Shown: one piece after another, positions 163 to 34,351 of the stretch
How the letters are laid out: each line of letters starts with the position of its first letter
Numbering within the stretch: the stretch's first letter is position 1
IMG/VR virus record: IMGVR_UViG_3300033562_002363
Span: 1-34,351 of that record
Origin: a virus
Taxonomy: Duplodnaviria > Caudoviricetes
Length of the DNA: 34,351 nucleotides
Direction: 5' to 3' (one strand)
Notes under the pieces: generated by a model
What the model saw: the letters and a program-made list of their open reading frames with translations, nothing else
What the model was told of the DNA's origin: nothing
Databases searched by the model: none
Translations under genes and position numbers: made by a program

Positions 163-1326
163 ATGTCAACCAGTCAAAACAATCCCTCGCTTCTCAATTT
201 TATACCCCCTCGCCTTACGAAAGGCAAAGAATGGTATATATCATCTTACTCTACTTATCCTGCAACCGGTAAGCTTAGAAGAGTAAGAATCAAGTTAAAC
301 AGAATCAAATCCATTTCTCAACGAAATGCTGTAGCAAAACGGCTTATTAGCGAACTATCAGTTAAGCTGCTGTCCGGATGGAATTACTTCATTGAGGCAG
401 AAGCACCAAAGTCGTATCATTTTCTGTTCAGCGTACTAGACACCTTTATTAATGTTCACGCTAAAGAACTTGAGGAACATTCCATGAGATCCTATAGATC
501 ATATGTAAAAATATTGAAGGCGTTTCTCCTCAGAAAAGGATACTCAGATAAAATGTATGTAATCAATTTTGACCGCCGGCTAGCTTCAGATTTGATGATA
601 GAAATCAAGGAAGGAGATTACTCATTGAGGACATATAACAATTACCTTCAGTTCTATACATCACTATTCAACTGGTTACTTGAGTTCAATTATATAGCTA
701 CAAATCCATTTTCGCACATAAAAAAGATTCCTAAAAAACGACTGATTAAGATACGTCAACCACTATCAGAGGATCATCGAGCTGAATTAAAAAGATTCCT
801 CCTTGAAATCGAAGGGAACAACAACTATTATGTAATGTGTTTACTATGCTATTATTGTTTCCTTCGTCCAAATGAAATTTCTCTATTAAGGGTTAAGGAT
901 ATCGATCAAAACAGACAGCTTGTATCTGTTTCAGAAACAATTGCAAAAAATGACAATGTCAGCTACAGGACCATTCCAGATGTAATGATGCCATATATAA
1001 AGAAATTGAAATTGAACAATCCTCCTGATTATTACCTATTCAGCATGGATGTAACTGGTGAGTTTATACCTGGGAAAAAACGTGCAGAAGGTCGTGAAAC
1101 AGCCAGATATTGGAGTTATATTCGGCAGTCGCTTAATTGGCCAATGTGGTTACAATTCTATTCCTTAAAGGATACAGGTATAACAAATATGCTGAGTGAC
1201 GGAGTTGCAACGAATTTTGTTCAGGGGCAAGCGGATCACAGCTCTTTATCAATGACTTCAATCTACGCAGTCAAGAAAAGCAGCGCTGCAGAAGAACAGA
1301 TCCGGAAGAAATCAAAGGCATTTTAG
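163..1326 (+). CDS. int: Tyrosine recombinase / phage integrase
   Basis: 387 aa. Catalytic-type motifs FLRPNE (R), AKND (K), YSLKDTG (variant of HxxR) and QADHSSLSMTSIY (H...Y). Core-binding region with TYNNYL...NPF. Adjacent to the tRNA 3' end. Confidence 0.92.
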   Translation: MSTSQNNPSLLNFIPPRLTKGKEWYISSYSTYPATGKLRRVRIKLNRIKSISQRNAVAKRLISELSVKLLSGWNYFIEAEAPKSYHFLFSVLDTFINVHAKELEEHSMRSYRSYVKILKAFLLRKGYSDKMYVINFDRRLASDLMIEIKEGDYSLRTYNNYLQFYTSLFNWLLEFNYIATNPFSHIKKIPKKRLIKIRQPLSEDHRAELKRFLLEIEGNNNYYVMCLLCYYCFLRPNEISLLRVKDIDQNRQLVSVSETIAKNDNVSYRTIPDVMMPYIKKLKLNNPPDYYLFSMDVTGEFIPGKKRAEGRETARYWSYIRQSLNWPMWLQFYSLKDTGITNMLSDGVATNFVQGQADHSSLSMTSIYAVKKSSAAEEQIRKKSKAF

Positions 1327-4056: not shown

Positions 4057-4410
4057 TTAAATGTTTTCTATTACTGATTGTGCAACACTCTTTGCATAAA
4101 GCCTGTAATCCTGAAACGCCTCATATTCTGCTAAGTAAATAACTGCCTTTTCATGTTCAGGATTGTCTTTAACAAGTTCTCTGTTGGCAAAAATTGCATC
4201 TCGCTTATCGTCCGGATATTTATCCCGGATAATAGCTGAAACGAGAGCTGCGTATGAGTGATCTCCGTCTACATCTACATTCGTTCCTCTGAACTTTGTG
4301 GATGTCTCTTCGTTGTACTCAACTTCAAAGGGTTCAAACCCGAAGAAGAGCCTTAATTTATTTCCCTCTCTGATGACAGGTAAGGGCATTGCGTCGAATT
4401 CTGCTTTCAT
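4057..4410 (-). CDS. Hypothetical phage protein downstream of the DGR RT
   Basis: 117-aa ORF tightly packed with its neighbours; helical C-terminus YAALVSAIIRDKY...FQDYRLYAK. Confidence 0.7.
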   Translation of the reverse strand: MKAEFDAMPLPVIREGNKLRLFFGFEPFEVEYNEETSTKFRGTNVDVDGDHSYAALVSAIIRDKYPDDKRDAIFANRELVKDNPEHEKAVIYLAEYEAFQDYRLYAKSVAQSVIENI

Positions 4411-4421
4411 AATATCAGTTT

Positions 4422-4979
4422 TTAATCAAAGTAATAATCTGCTTTATTGTTGTTTCCTGTACGGCGTTTCACCGTTGCCTTGAACGGAAAACACTCTTTT
4501 TCTCTGCATTGGTCAAGGATATCCTTAATCTTGTAGTTATTAGTGATAAACTTACACTCTTTCCCTTCTAACTCAATGAGAACAGCGTACCGGTCTCCTC
4601 CGTTCTTTGTCTGCACTCCTGTCTCGAAGTCCTTTACAACGACCTCCTGATTAAGGATATCCATCAATGTCTTTACTTCTACATCGAAGAACCGTTTCCC
4701 ATCCTTGCCTATGTTCTTCGCTTTTACATTCAGTTCATTAAAACTCTTCATTCCTGTTATCTTTTTCCATAAGTTCCTGCAATCTCCGTGCATGCACCAT
4801 CCTTTATAACTGCAGAGTATCTCATATTTTCGTTCTTTATCTTTTATCTGCGAATACTTTTTCGCAAATCGTTGTTTCATATCTTTACGCAGCAAGGTCT
4901 TTTGGTGAGAGAACCGGTACCCCAGGAAGTCTATCGACCGCCCTCTTTCCTCTTTTGCGCTTTCGTGTCTTTGTCTCAT
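4422..4979 (-). CDS. C-terminal part of DGR RT1 (domain 7 + thumb) fused to a ~110-aa accessory domain
   Basis: GRSIDFLGYRF...LLRKDMKQRF...CSYKGWCMHGDC aligns with RT2 RGIDFLGYVF...LLRKGIKQRF...CSWIGWAKHCNS. It continues in frame into MKSFNELNV... (internal ATG at 4751). Confidence 0.85.
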   Translation of the reverse strand: MRQRHESAKEERGRSIDFLGYRFSHQKTLLRKDMKQRFAKKYSQIKDKERKYEILCSYKGWCMHGDCRNLWKKITGMKSFNELNVKAKNIGKDGKRFFDVEVKTLMDILNQEVVVKDFETGVQTKNGGDRYAVLIELEGKECKFITNNYKIKDILDQCREKECFPFKATVKRRTGNNNKADYYFD

Positions 4980-5772
4980 TCCTTATCTCTACCCCTACCG
5001 GAAACACCGCATAGTTCGGTTTGATTATTAAATTAAGTTGCTTACTTACTACCTCGTTTACAGCTTTGTATATCTCCCACATCCGCTCTTTGCTCTCTCC
5101 CAGAAAAACCATATCATCGCAGTACCGGAAGTAATATTTTACACTCAAATCCTCCTTGATGAAGTGATCCAATCCACTAACGGCGAAGTTGGCCAGGAGC
5201 TGACTGGTATAAGAGCCTATCGGAAGTCCTTTTTCTGTTGAACGAATGATTTCACTTATGAGAGAAATAAACCTCTCGTCTTTGAATTTTCTTCTCAAGT
5301 CTGAAATAAGAACCTCTTGATCTATGTTGGGATAAAACTTCTGAATATCTGTTTTAAGACACCATGTTGAACCCTGTTTATCTTTCATAGCTCTCTTTAC
5401 CCTGTTCACCGCTAAAGTCACTCCACGCCCATTTATGCAAGCGTAGGTGTCGTAAATAAGAGACTTGGTAAGAATGGGATTAATGACTCTCATTATCGCG
5501 TGATGCAGGATCCTGTCCGGGAAGAAAGGGAGCTTGGATATCTCTCTTATTTTGCCTCTGTCGGCCACAATGGTCATTGTTCTGTATTCAGAAGTTTTGA
5601 ATGTTTCTGAAATAAGTTGCTGTTGAAGCTCCAAAAGCTTTCTCTCTGAGTCCTTCAGGAAGAGTCTCACACCATACGAAGTTTTTTTCTTGCCGCGAGC
5701 CGCTTCCTTTGCCGCTGCAGTAAGATTCTCTATTGAGTAGATCTGTTCGTATATATGTCCTATTCTCTTCAT
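4885..5772 (-). CDS. DGR reverse transcriptase RT1, N-terminal part (domains 1-6)
   Basis: Start MKRIGHIYEQI at 5772. Motifs DRILHHAI, LKTDIQKFYPNID, GLPIGSYTSQLLAN (DGR-type SQ) and YFRYCDD. The frame diverges from RT after FPV and ends in a basic tail. Confidence 0.93.
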   Translation of the reverse strand: MKRIGHIYEQIYSIENLTAAAKEAARGKKKTSYGVRLFLKDSERKLLELQQQLISETFKTSEYRTMTIVADRGKIREISKLPFFPDRILHHAIMRVINPILTKSLIYDTYACINGRGVTLAVNRVKRAMKDKQGSTWCLKTDIQKFYPNIDQEVLISDLRRKFKDERFISLISEIIRSTEKGLPIGSYTSQLLANFAVSGLDHFIKEDLSVKYYFRYCDDMVFLGESKERMWEIYKAVNEVVSKQLNLIIKPNYAVFPVGVEIRNETKTRKRKRGKRAVDRLPGVPVLSPKDLAA

Positions 5773-5897: not shown

Positions 5898-6010
5898 AAA
5901 AGTTAGCTGAGCCCCGATGTTCGAATTCGCATTCGAGAAAACGTTATTCGCATTCGAAGCTGACAAGCTGCATATCGAACCGTTATTCGCGTTCCCGCCG
6001 AACAGCCAGA
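5898..6010 (-). repeat. DGR template repeat (TR) including IMH*
   Basis: Aligns ungapped to 6115-6227 (offset 217). In the target frame it reads WLFGGNANNGSICSLSASNANNVFSNANSNIGAQL, with 9 AAY codons. Confidence 0.96.
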
Positions 6011-6069: not shown

Positions 6070-7305
6070 TTATACATTCAACTGTGCACCGGTTACCATC
6101 TTGAGGGCTCCATAAAAAGCAAGCCGAGAGCCGAAGTGCGAATCCGCACCCGAGAAAACGTTATACGCATACGAAGCCGACAAGCCGCAAATCGAACCGT
6201 AATTCGCGTCCCCGCCGAACAGCCAGACTTCTCCTGCAGCAGCAGAGTAGTGTGCATCTGCCCAACGATTAGTAGAGCCACCACTTATAGTGAGAGGAAT
6301 GATGTCAAAATAAGCACCAAGCTTCATTGTGTTTATGTACTGCCCAGAGGCAGATGTCAAACGCTGCGAAGTGCGATAATCAACACCAACAGGAGGCTTA
6401 TCGTTAGCCACCTTGTTGCCGTCGAAAATATATACCACATCGCCGTTTGAAACGATGCCTTGAACAAATTCCCATAACTGTCCGTAAGGATTTTCCAGGC
6501 CCCTGTAAGAAATACACTGCACTGTTGCACTAACGGCATCAAGAGTGTTTACAGCCCCGGAAACATCGCCCAGAGGTATGGTCTTGCCTGTTTGGATGTT
6601 TTGCTCATTGGCAAAAGATGATCCGGTTCCGTCCAGCCCAACTCCTAAAACAGCCTGAATAGAGGTATTGCCATACTCGGCCAGAAACATCATCATGATT
6701 TTTACTCGATGACTGTATGATTGCAGGCCCCAGTCTTTGCCGTTCACTTGAGCAGCTGCCCAAAACTGAGAAATAGTTTGTGTGCCAGTTGGTACAAGAT
6801 TAGGTTTACTTACCAACGCTGTTGATACCTTGTTTGCTTTGTACGCCCCTATACACATTGCCGGAGCTTTCTTTCCACCAATAGGAATCATCGAAGTCCA
6901 TAAAATAGGTAAGCCGCCTTCTGTTGTAACTAAGTAGTACAGGTCCGGAGAAAACCACATTGTGTGCCCTTTTGAGTGATCAACCGCCGTTCCGTCTACA
7001 AAATATGCTGAATTCGTTGGGTTCAGCTTGGCTGCTGTGCCATCTGTCTTAACCAGATAGCGACCACATTGAGAGTAATACAATTCTTTCATTTGCATGT
7101 TTCCAATTTGTGGCCACGAAGTACCAGAGTTATACTCAAGGTATGTTCCCCATGCTACCTGACGAAGTAATTGGCTCTGCCCTACATTCATCGAGTCCAT
7201 GAGTTTCTCAAGGGTGATTCTTTTGATTGAACCACCGACTTCACAAAGTATATTTTGGCTCTTTAATAACTGCTCTATGGCAGTAGCTAATGCTAAATCG
7301 TTCAT
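6070..7305 (-). CDS. DGR target protein; putative receptor-binding tail protein with a C-type-lectin (FGE-like) fold
   Basis: VR at the 3' end; motifs IGAYKA, YRGLENPYGQLWEFVQG and terminal GSRLAF. Located in the tail module. Confidence 0.88.
   Translation of the reverse strand: MNDLALATAIEQLLKSQNILCEVGGSIKRITLEKLMDSMNVGQSQLLRQVAWGTYLEYNSGTSWPQIGNMQMKELYYSQCGRYLVKTDGTAAKLNPTNSAYFVDGTAVDHSKGHTMWFSPDLYYLVTTEGGLPILWTSMIPIGGKKAPAMCIGAYKANKVSTALVSKPNLVPTGTQTISQFWAAAQVNGKDWGLQSYSHRVKIMMMFLAEYGNTSIQAVLGVGLDGTGSSFANEQNIQTGKTIPLGDVSGAVNTLDAVSATVQCISYRGLENPYGQLWEFVQGIVSNGDVVYIFDGNKVANDKPPVGVDYRTSQRLTSASGQYINTMKLGAYFDIIPLTISGGSTNRWADAHYSAAAGEVWLFGGDANYGSICGLSASYAYNVFSGADSHFGSRLAFYGALKMVTGAQLNV
6115..6227 (-). 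repeat. DGR variable repeat (VR) including IMH
   Basis: Over 6131-6227 (97 bp) there are 12 mismatches to TR, all at TR adenines of the sense strand. Encodes WLFGGDANYGSICGLSASYAYNVFSGADSHFGSRLAF. Confidence 0.96.
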
Positions 7306-25410: not shown

Positions 25411-26985
25411 TTATTCAGCGGTACCTGTACCGGTTAAATTAATAGTGAGAGATGCACCGCCACCAACAGCTACAATCTTACCTGCGTAAGCCTGAGCAGC
25501 CAAAGGAGCGAATGTTACAGTTATTTCCTTACCACCTGCAGCTTCAGCCTGAGCCTTAGTTACCGAGTAAGCCGAAAGAGTAAAGCCGGCACCTTGCACG
25601 GCCAGTTCAACGTTACCAGAAAGGTTTGCACCTGAGATAACTACAGTCTTGGTAGAAGTTGCATTTGCAACAGTATTGTCACAAGCTACAGGAGAAGGAA
25701 CCGCAGAGAGCACCGGTGTTGCGATACCAGTACCAGTAAGATTGATCTCTTCAGATACATCGCCACATGTGGCAATGATCTTGCCTATGTAGTTTTGAGC
25801 AGCAAGAGGAGAGAAGGTAACTGTTATCTCCTTGCCTCCAACAGCCTCGGCCTGAGCCTTGGTTACTTCGTAAGTAGAGAGAGTAAAGCCAGCACCTTGT
25901 ACAGCCAATTCGACAGTACCTGTAAGGTTTGCACCTGTAATAGCTACAGTCTTAGTCGAAGTCGCAGCTACTTCAGTATCGTTACAAACGACAGTTTCCT
26001 GATCTGATCCCAGAACTGGTGAGTCAGTAGGAACATCTATAACTGAGAAGTGAGCGGCCATGAGGCGTTTTGGATGAATAGACTCAAACTGAGCGCCGAA
26101 AAAGGCAGTCATAAAGAACTGAACAGCCTTAGGGTTGTCACATTTGTTGATCTCTACTTTTTCCTGGTCTGACATCTGGTCTACTCCAACGAGCATTGTG
26201 TTCTTTGTAGTCAGAAACATGTGAGTTGAATCGATCATCCCTGGAAGATCTACAAGTTCGCATTTCTTGTTTGTACCATGCAGGAAAGTCTGTTCATACT
26301 GTGTATTATATACTACAGGTCCGAATGCTGCAAGAGCCCACTCATCGTACATTTCCTTGATATCTACAGGAATGAACAGTTTAGTTCCCCTTTTTTTCAA
26401 CACCTGAGAAGCTCCGCTGTAAATAGCTTTCAGCTTATCACCTACGTTGGCGGCGTTAATTCCTCCCAGTTCAATGAAGTTGCCTTTTGCGACAGAGATA
26501 TTTCCGGCAACTTTCTCAGCAATGGTAATGGTATCAAAACCATCGAAAAGATCCATAGTTTCGTTTCCGGAAGCATTACGAACACCAGTGAAAATAGTTT
26601 TAGGAAGATCTTCAGTCGCTTGTTTAGACATCTCGACAGCTAAAGTCTTAACTACCTCCAGCTCCGTTCTCTTTTTAGATAGCGGCTCTGAATATGCAGT
26701 GCTATAGAGAGTATAAGGGTCAAATTCCTCTACAACGTCACCCAAAAAGGTCTCCAAGGTACGTCCATCGATAGAGGCAGTATTTGTCTCACCCTTTGCA
26801 GTTTTGTAAGGTCTTAGTTTTGCGCCGGAACGGGCCTCACCTACCGTTTCCTTGCCACGTACACCGTAGCGTATGGTCATGTGATTGGTAGTGTCTGAGA
26901 GAGCGACTACCGGCATGAGAAGAATTTCCTTGCGGAATTTGTGCCCTGATCCAATCAGAGCAGCTTTAATGTCAAGTTCAGCCAT
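25411..26985 (-). CDS. Major capsid protein with two C-terminal Ig-like domains
   Basis: ~320-aa capsid-sized N-terminal part (DLFDGFDTI) directly after the S49 protease, plus two ~101-aa tandem repeats. Confidence 0.8.
   Translation of the reverse strand: MAELDIKAALIGSGHKFRKEILLMPVVALSDTTNHMTIRYGVRGKETVGEARSGAKLRPYKTAKGETNTASIDGRTLETFLGDVVEEFDPYTLYSTAYSEPLSKKRTELEVVKTLAVEMSKQATEDLPKTIFTGVRNASGNETMDLFDGFDTITIAEKVAGNISVAKGNFIELGGINAANVGDKLKAIYSGASQVLKKRGTKLFIPVDIKEMYDEWALAAFGPVVYNTQYEQTFLHGTNKKCELVDLPGMIDSTHMFLTTKNTMLVGVDQMSDQEKVEINKCDNPKAVQFFMTAFFGAQFESIHPKRLMAAHFSVIDVPTDSPVLGSDQETVVCNDTEVAATSTKTVAITGANLTGTVELAVQGAGFTLSTYEVTKAQAEAVGGKEITVTFSPLAAQNYIGKIIATCGDVSEEINLTGTGIATPVLSAVPSPVACDNTVANATSTKTVVISGANLSGNVELAVQGAGFTLSAYSVTKAQAEAAGGKEITVTFAPLAAQAYAGKIVAVGGGASLTINLTGTGTAE
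25417..26022 (-). repeat. Tandem 303-bp intragenic duplication encoding two Ig-like domains
   Basis: 25720-26022 and 25417-25719 share ATSTKTV.I.GANL.G.VELAVQGAGFTLS.Y.VTKAQAEA.GGKEITVTF.PLAAQ.Y.GKI...INLTGTG. Confidence 0.92.
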
Positions 26986-30052: not shown

Positions 30053-32908
30053 TTAAATTGGCGGTAAGTCATCATTAAACTCTAAAGAATTATCATCATC
30101 AAGCGGCATGGTTGAGATAAAATAAAAGTATTGATCTTCTCCATTTTCTTTCTTCCGGATTTCATTGCGTTCTCGATCTGATTCTGTAGTTAAGAGGTGT
30201 TCCGGATTAAATATCCATTCTTTGTATTGACAAAATTGAATTACGCGATTTTTGAATGTATTTATCTTTATCATCCGGGCAACCTTTTCATTAAGAGTTG
30301 CACGATAAGCTTCAAATGCAGTATGTTTATTTACCATTGTATTTAATCTATCCTCATTGAAATAATCTTCAGCCCACCAGATGAACTCATCACCAATTGC
30401 CCGCTGTATGTTACGCTTTTCAATCTGTCCCATTGGCGGTTGAATTCGGACCCGGAATTTTAAATAAGAAGAGAGACAGGACAACATAAAATTGTAAAAC
30501 TTATTCATCTCTACAGGCGTGTAGTCTGTAATCAAGTTTTTACCAAATTCAGTATATGGACTTCTTTCCTTCATTCCTTTCATTGGATCCTCCGGATGAT
30601 AGTAAGAACTGAATGCCGTGAACCAGGTTCTTCTCCTAAGCGAAGCGTCGAAATTTTTTTTTTTTTTTTTTGATGTGAACCCAACCTTTGGACTATCTTT
30701 ATAATCAAGAACAAAAGCATTTGCATATTTTGCGTTTACAGTCATCTTGCCGGTAATCATTGGCATGAATCTGTGCAGATCAACAAACTCGTTTAGGTCA
30801 TCAAAAAAGACATGGTCAGTAATATTTCTTTCAACCCCTGCGAACATGAACTCGGATTTATCTTGCTGTAGATCCTGGCCATTGATAAAAAGTTGTTTAC
30901 GAACCTGTTCAATAGAAGAGATATATAAGGATTTTCCTGTACCTCCCATGTGTTGACCGATATCGGCACCTTCTAATTCCATCGAATAAACTCCGTATGC
31001 CTGGCCAGCCTCTTTGTATTTAAAAATCTGATATCCTAACGCAGTGATTTTATTGACAAAATGAAGATCCACTTCCTGTTTTTCTTCTTCAGACAACGAA
31101 TGGCCGAGTTCTTCTTTCCTCCAGTATAGCCGGCCGGTGTTATAGATATAACGCATGAAAGAAAATTCCCAATCCGCAATTGATACTTCATACTTTTCAG
31201 TTTCGGGCAAAGCGTCAATTTTCTTTTTCAGCGCAACGCGCTCGGGGGAGAGGGGGGCGAGGTCGCCTGATTTATATTGATTGATTAAAGTAGAAAAGGA
31301 TTTGGTATAATTGACCTCGAACAGAGGCTTCTCTATCGAGAAATCGTGGTCAATTATTTTGTGTTTATATACATAATAATCCCCATATCCGGGCTTTAAT
31401 ACTTCGATGCCGGTAGCTGTAACCCGCACAACTGCATTCCGGAAAAAGAAGGCATCAGAATGCTTATCAAAAGCCTCGAAATTCGGTGTTATTGTCTTAA
31501 GCTTATCCAAGGATCCTATTTTGATCTGATTGCTCCTGTGGATCGCATTTACAAGCTGCTGTGAGTAATATTCTGGATGTTCCTTTAGGTAATCAATCAG
31601 ATAATTTGAACACATAGAAGAGACACTGTCTTCATCAATGAGTTCAACAACATTATCCTTTACAAAACAAAAGGTATATCCTTTTTTATTGGTACTTGTT
31701 TCTATCTTCCAAAACCCACTTGCATTGAGAAACGCGTATAATTGCTCATTATTGATGTCATACCCTACAAAATCCCCTTTCTTATCCTTCTTATCTACCC
31801 AAAACTTCAACGAATAGGAAAGTTTAACAAGTTGGTCAAATAGTTTACGAGGGTTTTGTTGCTCTGGCCGGCGATAGTGAACGAAGAAATCTTTTGCATC
31901 CTTACAGTATTTTCCTCCCCGGGCACGAATCTTTCTTAGAGATTCCGGAAGCACAATAATATTTAGATCCAAATATGTCAACGCCAGTTGAAACATCCGC
32001 TTAAGCCCGGTATCATCAATATCATAGCAAATAAATACTTTCTTTGATAACCTGGTTAATAAGGAAAACTCATACGGAGAAAGCCTTGATGACTCACTAT
32101 TGAGCCAACAGACATGATATCCGGAAGCGTAAACATTAAGGGCATCAGAGGGGCCGGAACAAAGAACGAGCTCTTCCCACCTTTCATCCGTATGTGATTC
32201 TCGGTCAACCTCAGGGAATGATCCTTTTTTAGCATCTGCAAATAACCTTAAGAACTTATCATCCCCGAATATGGCATCCTCCGGCTTCTCACCGACATAA
32301 AGAAATCGTAAGTCTCCAAGAGGTTGGTAAAGCTTTCCGAAAGAACCATAATCGTACAGATATATTGGATATTCATCTGTAGAGAAAAACTGCCAAGACT
32401 CTCCTTTCTCATTACGCTTTGATATGTAAGAATCAACCGGCTTCAACCGGAAATCTTCGCAATGCTTCTGCTCTATGTTATATCCAAGTCTCTCAAGTTC
32501 CTTAGACGTGAATATTCCGGACTCTCGCAGGTTAACGACTATTTTATCTGAAGGAGAAGCCCTCTCGATGCGTGGTTTTGGTCCGGCAGATACAGAAACT
32601 TTATCTTCAAGAAGATGAGGAGCGTATTTTTTAGCAATCAGCTCAAGTGCCTGAGGAAAAGAAACCCCTTCCTGTTCCATCACAAGAGAAATAGCCGTAT
32701 GTGCTTTATTGTCTCCTCCTCCTTTATCCTGGAGAAACCAAACTCCGTCCTTTTGATAAACAGAAGCTGAAGGGTTTTTATCATCACCCCTTAAGCGAAA
32801 GTTTCTGCGAGAAGAGAACCCCACAGATGATTGCGGGAAGTACTCCAAAATTACATTCTTTCCTCCTTCAGTAGCGAGGAGAACTTCATCTTTCTCAATT
32901 CTAGCCAT
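30053..32908 (-). CDS. Fused TOPRIM primase / SF3 helicase
   Basis: 951 aa; TOPRIM-like LVLCSGPSDAL...ICYDIDDTG and CKDAKD; Walker A GGTGKS; Walker B VFFDD; arginine-finger region DASLRRR. Confidence 0.85.
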   Translation of the reverse strand: MARIEKDEVLLATEGGKNVILEYFPQSSVGFSSRRNFRLRGDDKNPSASVYQKDGVWFLQDKGGGDNKAHTAISLVMEQEGVSFPQALELIAKKYAPHLLEDKVSVSAGPKPRIERASPSDKIVVNLRESGIFTSKELERLGYNIEQKHCEDFRLKPVDSYISKRNEKGESWQFFSTDEYPIYLYDYGSFGKLYQPLGDLRFLYVGEKPEDAIFGDDKFLRLFADAKKGSFPEVDRESHTDERWEELVLCSGPSDALNVYASGYHVCWLNSESSRLSPYEFSLLTRLSKKVFICYDIDDTGLKRMFQLALTYLDLNIIVLPESLRKIRARGGKYCKDAKDFFVHYRRPEQQNPRKLFDQLVKLSYSLKFWVDKKDKKGDFVGYDINNEQLYAFLNASGFWKIETSTNKKGYTFCFVKDNVVELIDEDSVSSMCSNYLIDYLKEHPEYYSQQLVNAIHRSNQIKIGSLDKLKTITPNFEAFDKHSDAFFFRNAVVRVTATGIEVLKPGYGDYYVYKHKIIDHDFSIEKPLFEVNYTKSFSTLINQYKSGDLAPLSPERVALKKKIDALPETEKYEVSIADWEFSFMRYIYNTGRLYWRKEELGHSLSEEEKQEVDLHFVNKITALGYQIFKYKEAGQAYGVYSMELEGADIGQHMGGTGKSLYISSIEQVRKQLFINGQDLQQDKSEFMFAGVERNITDHVFFDDLNEFVDLHRFMPMITGKMTVNAKYANAFVLDYKDSPKVGFTSKKKKKNFDASLRRRTWFTAFSSYYHPEDPMKGMKERSPYTEFGKNLITDYTPVEMNKFYNFMLSCLSSYLKFRVRIQPPMGQIEKRNIQRAIGDEFIWWAEDYFNEDRLNTMVNKHTAFEAYRATLNEKVARMIKINTFKNRVIQFCQYKEWIFNPEHLLTTESDRERNEIRKKENGEDQYFYFISTMPLDDDNSLEFNDDLPPI

Positions 32909-33735: not shown

Positions 33736-34350
33736 TTATTTTGATTGCTTTAATATTTTATCTAATAAGCGCTTACTATTACAATGCTTCGCCCAACCGA
33801 TCCATGAACAGATGGCCTGCAGATATTCTTTCTGAGATAGATTCTTCTTATTAATCTTCGATACGCGCCTGCAAAACCGTTGTTTTATTCCCTTCCGAAG
33901 CAAAATATGAGAGTGATAAAACACATATCCCAGGAAATCAATACCTCTCGATTTTACAGGAAAAATCTGCCAATTATTCTTAACTGTTAGCTTCAGATTG
34001 TTTAAAAGGTAATCTTGCATTTCGATGAAGATATTTTGGAGATATTCCTTGCTGCCATGCAGTAAAACAATATCATCAGCATATCTGAAGTAATATTTGA
34101 CATGCTTTACTTCCTTGATCCAATGGTCGAAATAAGTTAAATACAGGTTGGCAAAATACTGAGAGAGGTAATTGCCGATTGGAACTCCCGGAGCGGAATC
34201 AATAATCTCATCCAACAGCTGCAGTAATTGTGTGTCTTTGATTTTCCTACGAATAATACACTTAAGCACATCGTGATTGATAGAAGGATAAAACTTTTTA
34301 ACATCCAACTTCAAACAGTATTGGGTGTTCTCTGGATCCTGCCGGAGTGT
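33736..34350 (-). CDS. Second DGR-type reverse transcriptase RT2 (5'-truncated by the window edge)
   Basis: Frame is open to the edge (TLRQDPENTQYCLKLDVKKFYPSI). Motifs GVPIGNYLSQYFAN, YFRYADD, and a continuous FPVKSRGIDFLGY. Confidence 0.9.
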   Translation of the reverse strand, partial: TLRQDPENTQYCLKLDVKKFYPSINHDVLKCIIRRKIKDTQLLQLLDEIIDSAPGVPIGNYLSQYFANLYLTYFDHWIKEVKHVKYYFRYADDIVLLHGSKEYLQNIFIEMQDYLLNNLKLTVKNNWQIFPVKSRGIDFLGYVFYHSHILLRKGIKQRFCRRVSKINKKNLSQKEYLQAICSWIGWAKHCNSKRLLDKILKQSK

Positions 34351-34351
34351 T

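Follow-up and report, generated by a model that had tools for sequence, protein, structure and literature searches.

The window, as we call the complete stretch of 34,351 nt that was analysed, is a virus record rated 88% complete, with an integrase, tail genes and a second reverse transcriptase (RT2) that is cut by the contig end. On its minus strand lies a DGR cassette (Table 1). It consists of a DGR-type RT (YxDD, SQ motif, bRT fold), the motifs of which are spread over two open reading frames, a pair of template repeat (TR) and variable repeat (VR) with mismatches at TR adenines, and a target gene that carries the VR at its 3' end.

Table 1. Features of the DGR cassette in the window
Feature	Position	Strand	Remarks
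DGR target gene, tail protein-like	6070..7305	-	411 aa, VR at 3' end; phrog_5302 tail protein, E 2e-48
Variable repeat (VR)	6115..6227	-	113 nt; inside target C-terminus
Template repeat (TR)	5898..6010	-	same 100-nt core in L001 and L002
ORF-A, RT fingers and palm (RT0-6) with basic tail	4885..5772	-	295 aa; RVT_1, E 3.8e-19; phrog_1423; best solved relative 8UB7
YCDD in ORF-A	5124-5113	-	
Dual-coded junction, RT6 (FPV) to RT7 (IDF)	4935..4995	-	61 nt; A frame Lys/Arg tail; B frame ATG and invariant Gly-Arg
+1-frame ATG, likely ORF-B start	4977..4979	-	inside A-frame AAT GAG; kept in 35 of 35 lineages
ORF-B, RT7, thumb and C-terminal domain	4422..4979	-	185 aa
C-terminal domain of ORF-B, about 105 aa, predicted OB-fold/SSB-like (weak lead)	4425..4751	-	VIA, RPA70N, Atlas, phrog_19665

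ORF-A runs from its ATG at 5772 through YCDD and NYAVFPV into a basic tail, ETKTRKRKRGKR (in a fuller reading GVEIRNETKTRKRKRGKRAVDRLPG), and ends at the TAA at 4885. ORF-B lies at an offset of +1 and overlaps it by 95 nt. Between its ATG at 4979 and its end at 4422 it contains GRSIDFLGY and SYKGW and then about 105 further residues, a domain that was absent from the first-pass annotation of the locus. A TAA one codon upstream of ATG 4979 closes the B frame. FPV of ORF-A ends at 4996 and IDFLGY of ORF-B begins at 4934. In the phrog_1423 profile the two ORFs are consecutive parts of one RT (ORF-A positions 96-363, ORF-B positions 365-538); a Pfam search gave no match in ORF-B. The split itself, as first annotated with its coordinates, +1 offset, 95-nt overlap and 61-nt spacer, was thus found again on the sequence. 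The same annotation also spoke of a 49-nt insert, having set the 61-nt spacer of the split RT against the 12 nt of RT2 (FPV-KSRG-IDF). Both lengths are correct, but RT2 is an unrelated yardstick, and the nearest single-chain relatives, P0037 and P0175, have 27-36 nt at this place.

Over 113 nt, the VR of the window differs from the TR at 15 TR adenines and at two adjacent non-A positions near the 3' end. This non-adenine pair (GG in the TR, CT in the VR) is absent from the VRs of the relatives L001 and L002. All mismatches are at adenines in L001 (15), L002 (14) and the distant L228 (12), and the window, L001 and L002 share the TR core, but each VR departs from it differently. The VR had been taken as a sign of past mutagenesis, which these adenine-site mismatches bear out; the pattern says nothing of the present rate. 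For the further suggestion that the split controls the rate of retrohoming, no support was found. Two relatives rated complete (records G404 and G405; L002, 42 kb with terminal repeats, and L228, a 53 kb provirus) have one RT match each, and this match is the split RT; complementation by a second RT is thus not needed in this clade. RT2 of the window (33736-34351, minus strand) is a single-chain, DGR-like RT with GNYLSQ and YADD. Although truncated, it could in principle act in trans in the window. No TR match for RT2 was found within the window, and the search for a second RT in the complete relative G404 was also negative. Searches for bAvd (PF22296) gave no match in the window's own record or in four relatives, two of them complete. 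The accessory protein Avd is common in DGRs, but not universal, and a remote accessory gene is conceivable here.

Some further features of the window were recorded. Directly after ORF-B lies a 117-aa gene (4057-4410, minus strand) with no Pfam or PHROG match. Similar-looking genes lie behind the RT in relatives of the two-piece, three-piece and fused kinds (L001, L002, L051, L228, L004). It may encode a tail protein or a DGR accessory protein that has escaped recognition. Positions 1-51 look, by eye, like the terminal 3' part of a tRNA (T-arm GGTTCGAATCCC); a tyrosine integrase gene (163-1326, plus strand, phrog_1) follows directly. The arrangement looks like that at a prophage attachment site; ARAGORN found no whole tRNA at the window start. 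Through two direct repeats of 274 nt, 73% alike (25418-25994), an Ig-like domain is present twice at the C-terminal end of a 524-aa gene (25411-26985), which by its position likely encodes the major capsid protein. At about 30650-30672, within a 951-aa ORF (30053-32908), there is a run of about 17 T on the plus strand, which may be an assembly artefact.

A broken RT frame could reflect an assembly error, or a pseudogene that is complemented by RT2, which is present at 33736-34351. For this exact strain there are no independent reads: the contig from run X1 that covers 4300-5259 with 0 differences and 0 gaps may be the source of the record, and is then not independent. However, contigs of wastewater relatives, from four samples of one study, cross the junction either without a gap (X4 record 22) or with a net gain of 3 nt (X4 record 21, X5 record 28, X3 record 11), and the only indels listed in the bridging wastewater contigs are two 3-nt insertions. 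In L001 (90% identity) and L002 (85%), the +1 offset, the ATG and the stop are all retained, and the overlap is longer by 3 nt in each. In three pairwise comparisons (Nei-Gojobori), dN/dS was 0.036-0.061 for ORF-A and 0.051-0.101 for ORF-B; both halves are under purifying selection. The split extends throughout the clade, down to about 53% identity. Taken together, the 3-nt indels, the dN/dS values of at most 0.10 and the complete relatives with a single RT match and A-only VR changes rule out a sequencing indel or pseudogene, and we regard error or complementation as barely conceivable. One X2 contig jumps 94 nt at 4980-5075, just upstream of the ORF-B ATG (side 36 nt), and possibly originates from another organism.

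The first-pass annotation had argued that a simple sequencing indel would not explain the locus, and it holds up, as relatives keep the +1 offset and junction indels are of 3 nt. Its reading of a natural split is likewise supported, because relatives retain the split, the offset and the ATG, and because both halves are under purifying selection. In this locus a DGR RT is divided between two genes, and the split is real, conserved and functional.

The distribution of this layout was examined in 325 locus records, which are redundant and include the window, by classing them according to motif spacing. Both breaks, each at +1, were present in 166 records, no break in 102, and the RT6/RT7 break only (the two-piece form) in 12. 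Another 12 have the RT6/RT7 break with the first break unscored, two are in frame with the first break unscored, eight are odd, and 23 without a full motif chain were dropped. The 12 two-piece records correspond to the window and four independent contigs (L001, which equals L053, L002, L092 and L228). Among the 120 best homologues of ORF-A, 13 protein clusters (P0042-P0053 at 91-51% identity, and the partial P0141) show the split ending; seen at the protein level, they end in the tail and an RL[SP]G-type motif, which results when the IDFLG codons are read in the other frame. The two-piece form was found in wastewater and in a mat sample, not in the gut. No two-piece RT occurred among the 21 loci of the GTDB scan, and 401 sampled genomes of the order of G001 yielded two matches, G001 itself (three-piece, L133) and the single-chain L239. 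Judged from its relatives, the window would come from a phage with a Bacteroidota host. By its matching layout, the RT of Quimbyvirus is probably of the LoVEphage type. The three-piece loci examined here are those of LoVEphage and its kin, including Phocaeicola phage PV4-TP1 (PQ571302.1).

All four architectures exist, since P0012 and P0031 (272 aa) carry the first (RT3/RT4) break only and are fused at the second junction. Eight three-piece records have an apparent J2 offset of 0. In six of these the fused frame is interrupted by stops, which suggests 1-nt assembly errors; the remaining two (from one contig) fuse in an A-run, and none was counted as a true fusion. One Bacteroides genome (G002:C195 and G002:C55) holds a three-piece RT and a second match in an open frame of 466 aa, probably a single-chain RT that has this C-terminal domain as well.

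Two readings of the overlap had been offered initially, a two-subunit RT and a programmed +1 frameshift. To compare them, the loci with an RT6/RT7 break were dereplicated at 85%, which left 35 lineages (3 two-piece, 26 three-piece, 6 unscored). A +1-frame ATG is found 12-22 codons upstream of IDF in all of them, compared with 189 of 615 windows of equal size taken from the RT cores (31%). The ratio of ATG to ACG is 40:2 at the junction vs 233:101 in the RT core (Fisher p 1.7e-4), a value that overstates independence because of the kinship among the 35 lineages, of which 32 are three-piece or unclassified. It is the ATG and not the amino acid that is conserved, because the A-frame dipeptide over it varies in nine forms (NE, DG, HE, YG, NG, DE, HG, HD, ND) and its place, counted from YxDD, ranges from codon 43 to codon 49. 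At the other (RT3/RT4) break, an ATG is present in 25 of 26 lineages. On proteins alone, the dipeptide pattern [NDHY][EDGAV] was matched by 13 of 13 clusters against a background of 101 of 157, which makes it a weak test. The ATG lies 95 nt upstream of the ORF-A stop, which is far for simple re-initiation.

As to the initiation signal, an SD-like AAGGA had been noted ahead of ATG 4979. This motif is not conserved (AAAGA in L001 and L002), and according to PMC6847099, Bacteroidetes mRNAs are without SD, with an A at -3 acting as a positive determinant of initiation; an SD-driven start (GATAAGGA) was ruled out on these two grounds. In the 35 lineages no enrichment of A at -3 was detected at the ORF-B start (16 of 35 junction ATGs have it; the figures are 110 of 233 for control sites and 15 of 24 for gene starts of the window), and the window itself has G there.

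A programmed +1 ribosomal frameshift in the purine-rich junction would produce one fusion protein, as Benler et al. (2021) suggested for the three-ORF form. This is workable, since the B frame stays open throughout the overlap, and a full RT would result if ribosomes shifted immediately ahead of the invariant Gly-Arg. The A tail is both translated and under selection, single-chain relatives show that fusion is tolerated, and AAA-A sites occur in 28 of the 35 junctions, at no fixed place. Such a shift leaves the ATG in 35 of 35 lineages unexplained, however, and no positive signal for it was found. A conserved slippery 6-7-mer was not found (the best, A/G-rich, occurs in 20 of 35), tandem AGR codons are present in four of 35 lineages, and no stable RNA structure is predicted at or after the junction (z +1.66, +0.56 and +0.67). 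The A-frame stop follows the IDF start by 47 nt in the window, 23 nt in L092 and 56 nt in L228. None of these three two-piece DNA lineages has a shifty stop of the prfB type, and the 13 protein clusters all read through; with the stop 23-56 nt beyond the IDF start, a stop-triggered shift would skip RT7. In 25 of the 32 other lineages the stop lies 2 nt past the IDF start, where such a model could use it. We consider the frameshift unlikely, and of the two initial readings the separate start is the better supported one, given the ATG in all 35 lineages, among which no conserved slippery site was found.

The overlap is dual-coded. Lys and Arg make up 363 of 608 positions of the A tails, with all six Arg codons in use, and the Gly-Arg before IDF in the B frame is invariant; judged from this coding pattern, the overlap is under selection in both frames. 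It could be asked whether both routes operate, ORF-B being started separately while a minor frameshifted fusion is also made. Selection in both frames, together with the interconversion of fused and split forms in evolution, would be in keeping with this, but no positive shift signal speaks for it, and we give it a slim chance. Transcriptional slippage, which would drop one base in a fraction of the mRNAs, finds an A-rich junction and a precedent in the three-piece assembly L018/L163, where a +2 change in an A-run fuses the frames. L018 may be an assembly error, however, and with a longest homopolymer of 4 nt in the window junction and at most 6 nt across the 35 lineages, slippage appears very improbable. 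On the comparison of lineages, we therefore favour two separately started subunits over a frameshift and hold this to be the probable arrangement.

Structure comparisons suggest what the two chains may contribute. The best solved relative in the ORF-A alignment is the BPP-1 DGR RT (8UB7, E 4.6e-65). The single-chain relative P0175 was modelled with a pLDDT of 92 and a TM of 0.89 to 8UB7, and in this prediction the junction forms a short hairpin linking the strands of RT6 and RT7. ORF-B modelled alone (pLDDT 68.5) has a thumb of three helices, a beta domain that is predicted well, and disorder at the N-terminus. This C-terminal domain resembles the PRD1 SSB P12 (VIA Z 5.8, rmsd 3.1, 85 aligned) and RPA70N (E 0.05). 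It also matches phrog_19665 and an Atlas cluster in which 44% of the members carry PF17427 Phi29 SSB (score 0.94). Foldseek with the ORF-B model returned nothing at E<=0.001. With these middling scores, an OB-fold similar to ssDNA-binding proteins is a weak lead for the predicted domain, and that it stands in for Avd is speculation. As halves of one fold, the ORF-A and ORF-B chains would be expected to associate.

Phylogenetic trees were calculated from the RT0-6 columns with the junctions excluded (241-243 columns). The careful tree has 39 rows; 34 of the 73 rows were omitted for reasons of speed, long branches and gaps. In this tree the two- and three-piece rows form one clade (99/99), which adjoins a clade of single-chain Bacteroidota RTs that share the C-terminal domain. 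Five single-chain RTs (P0175, P0220, L051, P0206 and P0216) fall inside the split clade. A constraint that keeps all split rows together was rejected (AU p 5e-7), and placing P0175 outside the window's subclade was weakly rejected (p 0.037, for a group picked after earlier trees). The fused in-clade proteins have longer spacers that end in GR-x-IDF or a close variant, and by their sequences the in-clade single-chain RTs are likely re-fusions. P0206 and P0216 are found near or inside the three-piece clade and have in-frame inserts of about 30 aa at the first junction; they are compatible with other orders of splits and fusions as well. The simplest reading of these sequences would be one origin of the RT6/RT7 break, a later second break and repeated re-fusion. 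The single origin is suggested by the tree together with the shared length and sequence of the spacer. The two-piece form is simpler and likely older than the three-piece form; branching at the base of the split clade is not resolved in the careful trees, and the order of two and then three pieces lacks tree support.

In the mechanism that we propose, the DGR RT of the cassette is encoded by two overlapping, conserved genes that are likely translated separately, with the products likely assembling as a two-chain enzyme. Ribosomes would begin ORF-B at ATG 4979 with no SD to guide them, where the RNA is unstructured and rich in A, and this start is possibly coupled to the translation of ORF-A. 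Pairing of the two chains would be non-covalent, at the junction of RT6 and RT7, and binding of TR RNA or cDNA would be aided by the basic tail together with the predicted SSB-like domain. The junction would have arisen once; a further break of this kind would have been added later in the Quimby/LoVE lineage, and re-fusion would have occurred in several lineages. In its widest form the proposal concerns a whole clade of Bacteroidota phage DGRs with a natural two-subunit RT and no Avd. A palm chain with a basic tail would pair with a separately started thumb chain whose SSB-like OB domain takes the accessory role, the two-piece form would be a step towards the three-piece Quimby/LoVE form, and the break would have been undone by re-fusion at least three times. 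This full combination we put forward tentatively, as a possibility with somewhat less than even chances.

The three-ORF RT belongs to one of the commonest gut phages and has been read as a double frameshift since 2021; we found no test of that reading in the literature. An RT with one junction isolates the question of frameshift or subunit and is the simplest test case, for which P0175 is a close natural single-chain control. If the subunit reading is true, the RT is a polymerase that is split by nature at a defined break point, and it would lend itself to conditional, two-component tools for DGR mutagenesis. The clade is probably dropped from DGR surveys by RT-length filters, because gene callers overlook the start of ORF-B and give fragments of 109-170 aa.

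In the literature searched, which did not extend to subscription journals and supplements, the two-piece clade, its position in the tree and natural re-fusions were not found to have been reported. The only split DGR RT found there is that of Quimbyvirus. According to Benler et al. 2021 (PMC8008677), it consists of three overlapping ORFs, for which two programmed frameshifts were suggested, and A-specific VR changes were shown. The implication of the first-pass annotation that characterised DGR RTs are single chains only is at odds with this three-ORF RT. By term look-up, no split or frameshifted RT came up in the available parts of PMC5758913, PMC8525569, PMC12629997, PMC8143477, PMC8144416 and bioRxiv 2024.11.15.621889. 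PMC3521204 lists a frameshifted Bacteroides RT as inactivated, but notes intact, A-only VRs.

The LoVEphage-type three-ORF RTs have the same junction as the window, after RT6, at a +1 offset and with the ATG in the same position, and often the same distance of 190 nt from YxDD to IDF. The basic tails are alike (GVEIRNETKTRKRKRGKR in the window, GAEIRNENKRHRKRKRSKR in the three-piece L004), and the C-terminal domain is the same, at 45-53% identity, whereas the RT cores are only about 44% identical. From RT3 to RT4, the window has 129 nt in frame and the three-piece loci have 169-181 nt (+1). The RT of the window is thus in two pieces and not three, because RT3-RT4 is continuous. ORF-A of the window reads through IDFLG, while in the three-piece loci the corresponding frame stops there. 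Where frameshifts were proposed for the three-ORF RT in 2021, the evidence presented here favours a separate start. BPP-1 bRT (8UB7) follows the same adenine logic of TR and VR as the window cassette. It is, however, one chain of 328 aa with no FPV-IDF insert and no extra C-terminal domain, and works with Avd. The single-chain Bacteroidota DGR RTs (P0039, P0040 and L239, and within the clade P0175, P0037/L051, P0220 and P0206) have the same domain order as the split RT, in one chain of 430-480 aa. Those within the clade have a spacer 3-8 aa longer than the canonical 141-nt form and nest among the split forms, and one of them, P0175, is 67% identical to ORF-A and 79% identical to ORF-B.
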